Below, one piece after another: positions 37,469-39,374 of a DNA stretch of 64,000 nt. Both the position numbers and the translations under genes were made by a program. This DNA is from Limnobacter sp. GTDB taxonomy: Bacteria; Pseudomonadota; Gammaproteobacteria; Burkholderiales; Burkholderiaceae_B. The stretch covers positions 21,466 to 85,465 of the forward strand of contig NZ_CAXQZX010000129.1 of assembly GCF_964228395.1 (NCBI RefSeq), read 5' to 3'. Numbering within the stretch: position 1 is the stretch's first letter; each line of letters opens with the position of its first letter. Under the pieces are notes generated by a model, which made no database searches, was not told the DNA's origin, and saw only the letters and a list, made by a program, of their open reading frames with translations.

Positions 37469-38254
37469 CTAGGGCCGAAGCATGCAGCGCTCGCCAGACG
37501 AATCGTTGAACTTGGAGGCGTAGAACGGGTTTGGGGGTGGGGTTTCTCCAATCCCGTAAAACTGCAGTCGAAGTTCCACGCGTCGACTGGCGTCTTTTGA
37601 GTCACGAATATTGTTGAAAGAGACCCCTCCCGCCAAAAACAGTTGTTTGATCTGTTTGCGTTCCTCCGCAGTGAGGTCGATGGGATTTTTGCCGGCATGG
37701 CCAAGAATGAGGCACATGACCCATTCTGAGCGCTTCAAGCTGAGGTTCAGGTTGTAGAGATACGACCCGTCGGTGTCCGTGAAGCCTTCGACCACAACTT
37801 GTTTTAGCCATTTTTTTCCAAGGGGCGAGTTGGCTGTGGCCAATAACAATTCGAGTGTGTCTTGTAGGGCCTGCTGACCGATATCGCTTAAAGTATATTC
37901 ATCGGTTTTGAAACGGCCCGCCTCTCCAAAGCTGATGCGTTGAAGTGAGCAATCAACTATCACATTGGGGTTGGTGGCGGCTGTTTGTTGGGATAGCTCT
38001 GAGCAAATGCCACCAATCTCCTGTTCGCGAATTGATATGTCAGTGGTCACTGGGCTAATGCTCTTCGGTGTTGTTTCTCGCTCGATGGGGGGAGAGATGA
38101 GTTCTTCCTGTGTTCGCGCCATTTGGCTTAAAGAAGTGACCATAACGACCAGAAACAGCACCATGAGTGCAGTCATTAAGTCTGCGTAGGAAATCCAGAA
38201 AGGGCGCTCCCCTTCGTCGCGATTGTTGCGTTGGGGTAAGTGTTGACCAAACAT
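37469..38254 (-). CDS. MotB-like protein: plug/TM with conserved Asp plus an OmpA-like peptidoglycan-binding domain
   Basis: The N-terminus RPFWISYADLMTALMVLFLVVM parallels E. coli MotB (AYADFMTAMMAFFLV) and includes the channel Asp (Asp25). The C-terminus (VVVEGFTDTDGSYLYNLNLSLKRSEWV .. SRRVELRL) is OmpA/MotB-like. Confidence 0.85.
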   Translation of the reverse strand: MFGQHLPQRNNRDEGERPFWISYADLMTALMVLFLVVMVTSLSQMARTQEELISPPIERETTPKSISPVTTDISIREQEIGGICSELSQQTAATNPNVIVDCSLQRISFGEAGRFKTDEYTLSDIGQQALQDTLELLLATANSPLGKKWLKQVVVEGFTDTDGSYLYNLNLSLKRSEWVMCLILGHAGKNPIDLTAEERKQIKQLFLAGGVSFNNIRDSKDASRRVELRLQFYGIGETPPPNPFYASKFNDSSGERCMLRP

Positions 38255-38256
38255 GA

Positions 38257-39264
38257 TCAGGCCTCGCTGACGTTAGGCAGATGAATGTCGTTTTGCCTCG
38301 CCCTAATCACCTTGACAGCCATATCGTGGGCGTTGCCTGCCGAGGGCGAGCGTTCGTTCAGCTTTGACACCATCTCTTCAAGGGGGGTACGGATTTGGCG
38401 TAAAAGGGCTGTTTCGATTTGGGAGGCCAGTTTCCGGTTGGATTCGTTGAGGCTGTTTTCCAAGGCCTGGGTAAGCCCTGTGATCTGTTGGGTCTGAATG
38501 GATTCCAGTTGCCGGACCACGGGAACCATGGCCTGTATTAGCTCGTCTTTCATCAGACGAGCTTGGTTGCTTGTGGTGGTGGAATGCTCCACCAGCGTGG
38601 CGAGATACTCTTCGCCAACAGCGCCCTCAAAAAGCCCGTTGAGGCAGTCAACCAAGTGATCCAGTGCGGTGATGCAGCGCCCATAGAGCATCTTTTCCCA
38701 GTGGGTAATCACCATGGCCGCTGTGATGGCCGCAGCAGAGGCGTAGAAAGCATCTCGCACGCCAGCGAGCAGCACAGAAATGCTTTTGCTAATTGTTTCC
38801 GTGTTGGTGGCATCAAAATTGGATAGGCCGAATAACAAACCCGCAAATGTGCCAATGATGCCTATGCCAGTGAGTATTCCTGGCAGGTGTTTAAAGTACT
38901 CGACACTCAGTTGGCGGTCGACCACGGACGAGACAGAGAAAAAATGTGACGCGGGTACTGTGATTCTGCATTTGGTTCGCTTGAGTTGACCCTGGACATA
39001 GCTGGTTTGAGTGTGGAGCGTTTTGGCAAACTCCCGCCAAAGGGGATCAAATGGGGAATCTTGAAACACCCTTGCGACGCCGCTTTTGCGCATGCTTTCA
39101 TCGCCGTCGCTCATCGAGCGTATTGTGGTTCCAATTTTTTCCAGGTTGCTACATAAACTTCGAGCGGGCACCACGTAGCGGGAGTAAAAAAAGTAGCAGG
39201 CGATCAACAAGATGATCGCAACCATGGTGGGCGGGATGAGCTGGAGAATACTGACTGCGGACAT
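38257..39264 (-). CDS. MotA/ExbB/TolQ-family proton-channel protein with a C-terminal coiled-coil tail
   Basis: It has TM1 (PPTMVAIILLIACYFFY) and a loop of about 100 aa. The family-typical TM pair follows (LPGILTGIGIIGTFAGLLFGL and LLAGVRDAFYASAAAITAAMVITHW), and then about 145 aa of helical tail. I prefer the ATG at 39264 (GGAG 9 nt upstream); the ORF-track start is 39300. Confidence 0.8.
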   Translation of the reverse strand: MSAVSILQLIPPTMVAIILLIACYFFYSRYVVPARSLCSNLEKIGTTIRSMSDGDESMRKSGVARVFQDSPFDPLWREFAKTLHTQTSYVQGQLKRTKCRITVPASHFFSVSSVVDRQLSVEYFKHLPGILTGIGIIGTFAGLLFGLSNFDATNTETISKSISVLLAGVRDAFYASAAAITAAMVITHWEKMLYGRCITALDHLVDCLNGLFEGAVGEEYLATLVEHSTTTSNQARLMKDELIQAMVPVVRQLESIQTQQITGLTQALENSLNESNRKLASQIETALLRQIRTPLEEMVSKLNERSPSAGNAHDMAVKVIRARQNDIHLPNVSEA

Positions 39265-39346
39265 GGCTGCAAGCTCCCTTTTTTGATTGTGTGAATGCAA
39301 TCGAGGTGCTTGCCCCGATGGAGAAAGGAAAATTCCCTACGGTCAC

Positions 39347-39374
39347 TTGGTGGCTTGCAGGATTGAATGGTTCC
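39347..39374 (-). promoter_or_regulatory. Perfect hrp box upstream of the motA-like gene and the minus T3SS operon
   Basis: The minus-strand reading is GGAACC attcaatcctgcaag CCACCAA, which equals GGAACC-N15-CCACNNA. It lies directly downstream of the terminator of the preceding gene. Confidence 0.7.

Follow-up and report, generated by a model that had tools for sequence, protein, structure and literature searches.

What are the genes of a motor-like membrane pair doing in an island of type III secretion system (T3SS) genes? The question is raised by a 64,000-nucleotide stretch of Limnobacter sp. DNA (contig NZ_CAXQZX010000129.1, positions 21,466 to 85,465 of the forward strand; hereafter the window), in which two genes on the minus strand lie at one end of an island (15212–39264) whose remaining genes include one for an SseC-like translocator as well as sctV, D, N, O, Q, R, T and U. 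An earlier note on this DNA had read the two as a proton-channel pair of the MotAB/ExbBD type leading an injectisome operon. The broader part of that assignment holds, as sequence comparison supports membership of the pair in the MotA/ExbB–MotB 5:2 motor superfamily. The narrower part does not: the pair is, on well-supported homology, a tail-truncated relative of ZorA and ZorB of the type I Zorya defence system and not MotAB or ExbBD proper. We refer to this short-tailed ZorA/ZorB pair as zorAB-s, with zorA-s for the A subunit and zorB-s for the B subunit.

The two open reading frames (ORFs), the transmembrane motifs, the channel aspartate and the OmpA-like domain first described for the pair are all present in the ORF translations and Pfam searches. 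zorA-s (38257–39264, minus strand) encodes 335 aa from an ATG start with GGGAG 9 nt 5' of it, and its product contains LPGILTGIGIIGTFAGLLFGL and AFYASAAAITAAMVITHW. The ATG of zorB-s (37469–38254, minus strand) lies 2 nt past the zorA-s TGA, and its product is a full-length ZorB-type B subunit of 261 aa with Asp25 inside FWISYADLMTALMVLFLVV. Searches with the expected MotA/ExbB and MotB families gave a divided result. ZorB-s scores above the Pfam gathering thresholds (GA) for both MotB_plug (30.0 bits, GA 24) and OmpA (27.6 bits, GA 27.2), and ZorA-s falls below that for MotA_ExbB (PF01618; 15.1 bits, E 0.02, GA 22.9). Taken by itself, the Pfam MotA_ExbB model would have ruled out the A subunit; the family placement of ZorA-s was settled by ZorA-specific models instead. 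Against ZorA1 models, ZorA-s gives E 2.6e-84 (PADLOC) and 2.5e-67 (NCBIfam), covering only positions ~12–314 of 663–729, and ZorB-s matches ZorB1 models (E 2.8e-85 in PADLOC, 6.3e-92 in NCBIfam) over positions 1–242 of 243. The precomputed domain assignment for the ZorA-s family is PF28082, ZorA-like_t1. Both proteins miss the NCBIfam equivalog cut-offs (NF041794 / NF041788), ZorA-s with 227.8 against 750 bits and ZorB-s with 307.4 against 400. No NCBIfam MotA model scores on ZorA-s, and MotB/MotD models reach 13–23 bits against cut-offs of 194–342.

Structural comparison points the same way. ZorA-s aligns with residues 19–328 of E. coli ZorA (EcZorA, PDB 8qyd; E 6e-50), and ZorB-s aligns with EcZorB (8qyd_F; E 1e-71), its Asp25 standing opposite EcZorB Asp26. 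The AlphaFold2 model of ZorA-s (predicted local distance difference test score, pLDDT, 79.5) runs in order through a first transmembrane helix (TM1), a cytoplasmic domain that lies close to the membrane and includes a beta-hairpin, the TM2/TM3 pair, an 89-residue tail helix (residues 216–304) and a short terminal helix. Its top Foldseek matches are four EcZorA entries (E ~1e-16, TM-score 0.80–0.86); ExbB and TolQ structures are distant matches (probability 0.7–1.0, E ~1e-2 to 1e-1). By analogy with EcZorAB, we infer a 5:2 stoichiometry and ion-coupled rotation for the pair.

Which parts of the Zorya motor have been kept, and which have been lost, can be read from alignments of 21 short and 109 long sequences (130 in total). 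In EcZorAB the residues that matter include ZorB Asp26 and ZorA Pro136, Ile144, Thr147 and Ser184 (PMC11946911). ZorA-s P128, I136, T139 and S176 are invariant across both sets, and D25 of ZorB-s, its peptidoglycan (PG) motif TDTDG...N..LS..R and the cysteines C84, C102, C181 and C257 are conserved in the 130 sequences. Judged from these alignments, the motor residues and PG-binding elements of the pair are retained. The tail is another matter: ~120 residues of it are left in ZorA-s and ~400 are gone compared with a canonical ZorA of ~730 aa, and what remains ends in a conserved basic tip (K318, 'KVIRARQ') specific to the short clade. The Ca2+ site of EcZorA (E86, E89 and the D217/Y220 backbone), which couples motor to tail (PMC11946911), has also been remodelled. 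At the position of the Glu89 ligand all 21 short members carry a basic residue (K in 18, R in 3), against an acidic one in all 109 long ZorAs (E in 105, D in 4); the E86 position stays E or D in the short clade and the D217 position is variable. The periplasmic linker of ZorB-s is longer than that of EcZorB. Long tails occur in all Zorya subtypes, where ZorAB is modelled to detect envelope perturbation and to signal through the tail (PMC11946911). It is very unlikely that the short form functions as Zorya, because every tail truncation tried in that system abolished defence (PMC11946911).

A protein search returned ~80 clusters of 330–345-aa proteins, 39–100% identical to ZorA-s and many of them from Limnobacter; the long ZorA1 proteins appear in the same search as matches under ~36% identity. 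We collected 165 related loci from GTDB species genomes, JGI metagenomes and individual look-ups and searched each by tblastn, the queries being the T3SS proteins of the window and a verified ZorC and ZorD. All 22 of the short-ZorA loci with enough flanking sequence adjoin T3SS genes; the other four of the 26 such loci are on short contigs that carry no neighbour information. ZorC and ZorD have no tblastn match in any of the 26. Long-ZorA loci present the reverse picture. ZorC and/or ZorD accompany 115 of 123, the other eight being cut by contig ends and uninformative, and T3SS neighbours are absent from them apart from one weak secretin match of 25%. The earlier note had proposed that its reading would be undone by homologues standing mainly beside non-T3SS genes such as those of Zorya. 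This is so for the wider family; it is not so for the short clade, which is exclusively T3SS-linked.

The two groups are cleanly separated. ZorA length is bimodal (322–366 versus 600–880 aa) with no intermediates, and in a neighbour-joining tree of ZorA plus ZorB the short clade is monophyletic, on a long branch beside the most divergent long ZorAs. Its deep position among the Zorya I subgroups is probably a product of long-branch attraction, and only monophyly is claimed here. Two further short hits, P0100 and P0113, were considered as additional short clades and rejected, being split or frameshifted ZorAs of ordinary ZorABCD loci.

Within the T3SS cluster the pair occupies three positions. 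In the window-type arrangement (L001, L006–L012) it is divergent from sctV...U and stands ahead of a 141-aa gene followed by sctJ-K-L-C. Elsewhere it is collinear, between sctU and the operon of the 141-aa gene and sctJ (L005, L007, L015, L016), or lies at the distal end of the cluster past the translocators (L003, L093, L168). Association with related T3SS loci, which the earlier note had proposed to survey, is thus seen in 22 loci and three gene orders; it is not universal, the Limnobacter humi cluster discussed below being without the pair. In two loci zorA-s is truncated (10001–10771, 259 aa, in L017; 9935–10636, 233 aa, in L019), and in both the T3SS cluster is partly deleted as well. The L019 remnant abuts an sctT fragment and sctU, and a 229-aa protein of L. 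litoralis (P0079) resembles the two truncated forms. Of the distal type, L003 (8603–17178) has 410-aa genes of unknown family on both sides of the pair, followed by genes for a tyrosine-phosphatase-domain protein and a eukaryote-like protein kinase, likely effectors.

The pair diverges at the same rate as the T3SS genes. Synonymous divergence (dS) is saturated for most sequence pairs, so that omega (the ratio of nonsynonymous to synonymous rates) comes from three pairs only (dS 0.12–0.60), one of which gave the zorB-s value: 0.023–0.029 for zorA-s and 0.052 for zorB-s, compared with 0.016–0.018 for sctJ, 0.010–0.039 for sctC and 0.09 for sctL. Purifying selection on the pair is in the same range as on sctJ and sctC. 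Pairwise distances of ZorA-s and ZorB-s track those of SctJ and SctC as closely as SctJ tracks SctC (r 0.94–0.97), the co-divergence being strong overall (Mantel r 0.986, 0/2000 permutations), and mean divergence is alike (0.43–0.44 for the pair, 0.41–0.43 for SctJ/SctC). The GC content of the pair is like that of the rest of the island. Taken together, the omega range, the tracking of distances and the GC match argue for long vertical co-inheritance of the pair with the T3SS, not repeated capture.

The pair also appears to be wired into T3SS regulation. The perfect hrp box that had been reported upstream is there, an hrp-box or extracytoplasmic function (ECF)-type promoter motif TGGAACC-N15-CCACcaA at 39347–39375 (minus strand), ~83 nt from the zorA-s ATG. 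The strict hrp-box pattern has two matches in the 64 kb against 0.44 expected by chance; the other, at 15150–~15177 (plus strand), lies at the front of the divergent T3SS operon, 38 nt ahead of sctV. A box of the form GGAACC-N15/16-CCACNNA upstream of the pair predicts, from the motif, that it belongs to the HrpL/ECF-type T3SS regulon. Most related loci do not conserve the strict box and have a relaxed motif only: of 16 related loci inspected, 13 have TGGAACY-N15/16-xxAC at 60–110 nt upstream of zorA-s, with all three arrangements represented, and the motif is present in L168 as well. It was not seen in L016, and L011 and L017 were left out of the inspection. The relaxed pattern has six sites in the window against 1.3 expected, and single relaxed sites are accordingly of limited weight. 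Across these loci the pair is thus predicted to carry a T3SS-type promoter in each arrangement.

Just upstream, the insulating terminator of the earlier reading proves to be a tandem structure. Folding gives two hairpins and a U-run at 39377–39437 (minus strand), an intrinsic terminator of the upstream LapA-like gene, with a minimum free energy of -44 kcal/mol and z = -6.5 (0/200 shuffles fold as well), which is predicted to insulate the zorAB-s promoter; homologous hairpins lie upstream of the pair in L001 and L009–L012. Downstream, the 58-nt gap between zorB-s and the next gene contains, as had been noted, no terminator-like site. It does contain a second ECF-type promoter-like motif that had been missed, TGGAACT-N16-TCAC at 37438–37465 (minus strand), and a similar GGAACT motif is found in the same gap in L001, L005, L007, L009–L012, L015 and L016. 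A separate promoter for the sctJ operon is probable, and zorAB-s, possibly with read-through, may form a bicistronic unit and not the obligatory leader of that operon. The claim that the pair leads the operon therefore survives as to the hrp-box promoter ahead of it and is unproven as to leadership, because of the conserved second motif.

We lean, by a little, toward the view that a PG-anchored, ion-driven motor has been exapted to serve the injectisome of Limnobacter-group Burkholderiales. Two components of this view are well supported by the comparisons above: that zorAB-s is of the type I Zorya motor lineage, without ~400 ZorA tail residues and without ZorC/ZorD, and that it is an accessory module of an Hrp1-like injectisome, under the same ECF/HrpL-type promoter motifs as the secretion genes. 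That it energises secretion we infer. In such a mechanism, ZorB-s dimers would anchor through the OmpA-like domain to PG beside the basal body, and ion flow by way of Asp25, Thr139 and Ser176 would turn the ZorA-s pentamer around them. The ~13-nm tail stub, with its basic tip, would then relay motion or a change of conformation to the injectisome on its cytoplasmic side, with SctV, the N-domain of SctD or the SctK/Q/L sorting platform as candidate targets, and in this way promote or gate its assembly or its secretion. On this view zorAB-s would be an enhancer rather than a core part, because a sister T3SS does without it. A bolder form of the idea, in which zorAB-s is a dedicated rotary 'stator' driven by proton-motive force (PMF), recruited from the antiviral Zorya motor and not from the flagellum, whose rotating short tail mechanically drives or gates secretion, is possible but doubtful.

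Several observations weigh against a motor that serves the injectisome. In L. humi (L166, JANIGO010000001.1:760070-781881) the pair is absent both between sctU and the sctJ operon and from the rest of the 21.8 kb inspected, which carry a T3SS of the same family, collinear and complete from sctV to an SseC-like translocator, its SctC being 40% identical and the most divergent of the family; the pair must then be accessory and not core. The Pantoea Hrp1 cluster has no ZorA/MotA-like gene either. From these two gene complements the pair is predicted to be dispensable for a working injectisome, and its absence from some members of the T3SS family bears out the original remark that it is not a canonical Sct component. 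No ECF/HrpL sigma-factor gene turned up in the window or among the fetched loci, except one beside a T3SS remnant in Imbroritus, and the argument from the operon loses force through the second promoter-like motif of the gap. Physical coupling is not proved by co-location or by a promoter motif in common, and the motor role is a prediction from sequence. Any two vertically inherited genes are expected to co-diverge. We know of no rotor or FliG-like partner for a stator in injectisomes.

Other roles can be imagined for a retained pair of this kind. It might be a sensor or regulator, a motor that idles until the envelope or PG is perturbed by basal-body insertion or needle–host contact, whereupon a tail signal licenses secretion. 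This would carry over the Zorya model, in which ZorAB detects envelope perturbation and signals via the tail (PMC11946911), and it agrees with the retained motor and PG-binding residues, with the accessory status of the pair and with the remodelled Ca2+ site at the motor–tail junction, which in EcZorA controls the connection between the two. No receiver with a known signalling domain adjoins the pair in any arrangement, however, and the part of the tail needed for Zorya effector recruitment is gone; we consider such a role unlikely, while recognising that sequence alone cannot separate it from the mechanical model. A passive anchor or scaffold is quite improbable. Here the OmpA-like domain of ZorB-s would staple the basal body to the wall in place of a helper of the lytic transglycosylase or pilotin type, with ion flow irrelevant. 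The PG motif and disulfide cysteines of the domain are intact, the periplasmic linker exceeds that of EcZorB, and no SLT-type or pilotin family was detected among the scanned island ORFs of at least 120 aa, in agreement with what had been remarked before. Yet a pure anchor needs no ZorA, and it would not account for residues Asp25, Thr139, Ser176, Pro128 and Ile136 that are invariant down to 40% identity with omega ~0.03, nor for the maintenance of the tail stub and its conserved tip.

The remaining alternatives detach the pair from the injectisome altogether. Its closest relatives are all anti-phage Zorya I systems and genomic islands often house defence genes, so it could be a hitch-hiking Zorya remnant, or an autonomous defence module with effectors elsewhere, carried passively in the island. 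We regard this as highly improbable: purifying selection is as tight as on sctJ and sctC, the clade is monophyletic with members down to 40% identity and no ZorC/D in any locus, and tail truncation abolishes Zorya defence experimentally (PMC11946911). The pair has, moreover, moved within the cluster and never out of it, keeping a T3SS-type promoter motif in the loci counted above, and it was lost together with the T3SS in L017 and L019. Least probable of all is that the pair serves the neighbouring LapA-like surface protein in the way that SiiAB assists the type I secretion system (T1SS) adhesin SiiE. That precedent is real, and the upstream gene (39449–40909, minus strand), with its LapA-type N-terminus (E 1e-6, below cut-off), is conserved in window-type loci; against it stand the strong terminator between gene and pair, the absence of adjacent T1SS genes, and the replacement of this neighbour elsewhere by sctU, a 410-aa gene or a methyltransferase gene.

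The surroundings of zorAB-s are those of a recognisable injectisome cluster. The divergent T3SS operon (15150–23943, plus strand) consists of the hrp box followed by sctV, sctD, sctN, sctO, sctQ, sctR, (sctS), sctT and sctU. Of the genes that had been named downstream of the pair, sctJ (36190–36978; HMM 3e-60), sctL (34774–35586; HMM 1e-8) and sctC (32988–34823; HMM 3.5e-103), all on the minus strand, are recovered by hidden Markov models (HMMs), and the sctK-like gene (35435–36328, minus strand) is weakly supported (YscK, E 0.022). The sctI-like label of the 141-aa gene (36985–37410, minus strand) is supported by position only: the gene sits at the hrpB/sctI position and is conserved ahead of sctJ whether or not a locus has the pair, with no HMM family match and no BLAST similarity to Pantoea HrpB. 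The island's only match to the YscI/HrpB inner-rod family (PF17001), a weak one (E 1.6e-4), is a 132-aa ORF at 30537–30935 (minus strand), likewise without BLAST similarity to Pantoea HrpB, and this ORF may be the real SctI rather than 36985–37410. An ECF-type motif (31110–31138, minus strand) lies ~170 nt upstream of it, inside the ORF 30871–31413.

Other features of the window touch on the regulon and the setting of the island. A divergent hrp-box-like motif (15087–15115, minus strand) faces a GNAT acetyltransferase gene (14472–15224, minus strand) adjoining sctV, and in the Pantoea Hrp1 cluster a GNAT gene likewise flanks sctU. A further hrp-box-like motif, GGAACCTTTAAATACATGGATTGAACTTA (45647–45675, plus strand), ends ~20 nt before a 506-aa ORF (45695–47215, plus strand) that has no Pfam domain and lies between acyl-CoA dehydrogenase and carboxylase genes, a candidate effector of the T3SS regulon outside the island. 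Just beyond the island are two genes for hybrid sensor histidine kinases (PAS/dCache-HisKA-HATPase-REC; 4975–10590, minus strand, and 10604–14548, plus strand), possible T3SS regulators. In the window and also in the distant locus L005, the T3SS has the B12-dependent methionine synthase gene metH beside its sctV end, which suggests an old, stable insertion site. The LapA-like product of 39449–40909 is a Gly/Pro/Thr-rich protein of 486 aa with an internal duplicated block (GGDSGGGSEGPTGTPLDAVLG, twice), and its N-terminal match is to a LapA-type 'retention module' below the cut-off (E 1e-6); homologues occur upstream of zorAB-s in window-type Limnobacter loci and not in the other arrangements. 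Down to 40% identity, the secretin family of the window is restricted to organisms of the Limnobacter type. Outside Limnobacter, the next-closest secretin, at 33%, belongs to Imbroritus primus (L167, OZ201293.1:900970-922958), where the T3SS remnant consists of sctU and sctC only, beside an ECF sigma-factor gene, with no ZorAB present.

Across ~8.3 million papers and preprints, we found no description that links ZorA/ZorAB-like or stator-like pairs to T3SSs or injectisomes, and so none of an injectisome family with such a pair, as had been supposed; the Limnobacter T3SS is mentioned only in passing. The use of PMF by injectisomes is a long-standing open question. PMF-dependent rotation of the injectisome is a contested claim (Ohgita 2013, as cited in PMC3877841). 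If the bolder form of the idea is right, zorAB-s would be the first rotary motor driven by PMF to be described as dedicated to a non-flagellar T3SS, and an example from nature of a defence motor that was exapted for a secretion machine. A T3SS family with a dedicated, dispensable ion-driven motor would be a genetically clean system for the study of PMF coupling, with L. humi as a natural 'minus' control. What ZorAB senses, and how its tail signals, are unsettled in Zorya, and an informative comparison is offered by a natural ZorAB whose tail is minimal, whose Ca2+ site is swapped and whose downstream partner is another. The pair would also show that 5:2 motors pass between immunity and the machinery of secretion or virulence, beside the known ExbBD/TolQR, MotAB, GldLM/PorLM, AglRQS and SiiAB.

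Among characterised systems, the injectisome itself is closest to the Hrp1 T3SS (Pantoea stewartii, Erwinia and P. syringae hrp-hrc, the HrpL regulon), the closest plasmid-borne SctV being 40.6% identical. The two share a plan of divergent operons, sctV-D-N-O-(P)-Q-R-S-T-U and x-hrpB-sctJ-K-L...sctC, with hrp-box type promoters. They differ in that the Pantoea sctJ operon opens with the hrpA pilin gene and hrpB, with zorAB-s occupying the place of hrpA in the window, and in that hrpL is adjacent in Pantoea and no sigma-factor gene was found in the window. Of the machines related to T3SSs, only the flagellum is known to have a 5:2 motor dedicated to it, the stator MotAB/PomAB. zorAB-s would resemble this stator as a 5:2-type motor with a PG-anchored B subunit, MotB_plug and OmpA being detectable, and in its tie to a type III export machine. 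The A subunit, however, is ZorA-like and not MotA-like, and in the cytoplasm it has a central coiled-coil tail in place of a torque interface facing FliG, a protein that the injectisome does not have.

Pairs of the MotAB kind that serve secretion systems have precedents in SiiAB (T1SS) and in the motors of the type IX secretion system. Compared by description and not by alignment, SiiA/SiiB of Salmonella pathogenicity island 4 would be the nearest functional analogy, a MotB-like subunit (PG-binding, with Asp-dependent proton conduction) and a MotA-like one forming an accessory pair inside a secretion locus, although that locus encodes a T1SS, the pair belongs to a different branch of the motor superfamily, and it has no ZorA-type tail. 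How the use of PMF by SiiAB assists the T1SS is still mechanistically unexplained.

The system nearest in sequence is type I Zorya (E. coli EcZorI, PDB 8qyd; Hu et al., Nature 2024, PMC11946911), and here the comparison is sharpest. zorAB-s departs from Zorya in four defining features, namely the length of the tail, the presence of ZorC/D, the make-up of the Ca2+ site and the score against the equivalog models. ZorA-s has 335 aa in place of ~730, and a tail of ~500 aa is required for Zorya defence; T3SS genes follow zorB-s where zorC and zorD would be; the Ca2+ ligand E89 is replaced by K or R, the D217 position is not conserved and the ZorB linker is longer; and the context is a T3SS cluster with hrp-box-type promoters instead of a defence island. 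What the two have in common is the motor: both subunits are homologous and of the same fold, their genes stand near-abutting in the order zorA–zorB, and the ion-path residues, the OmpA-like PG-binding domain and its four cysteines are all conserved.

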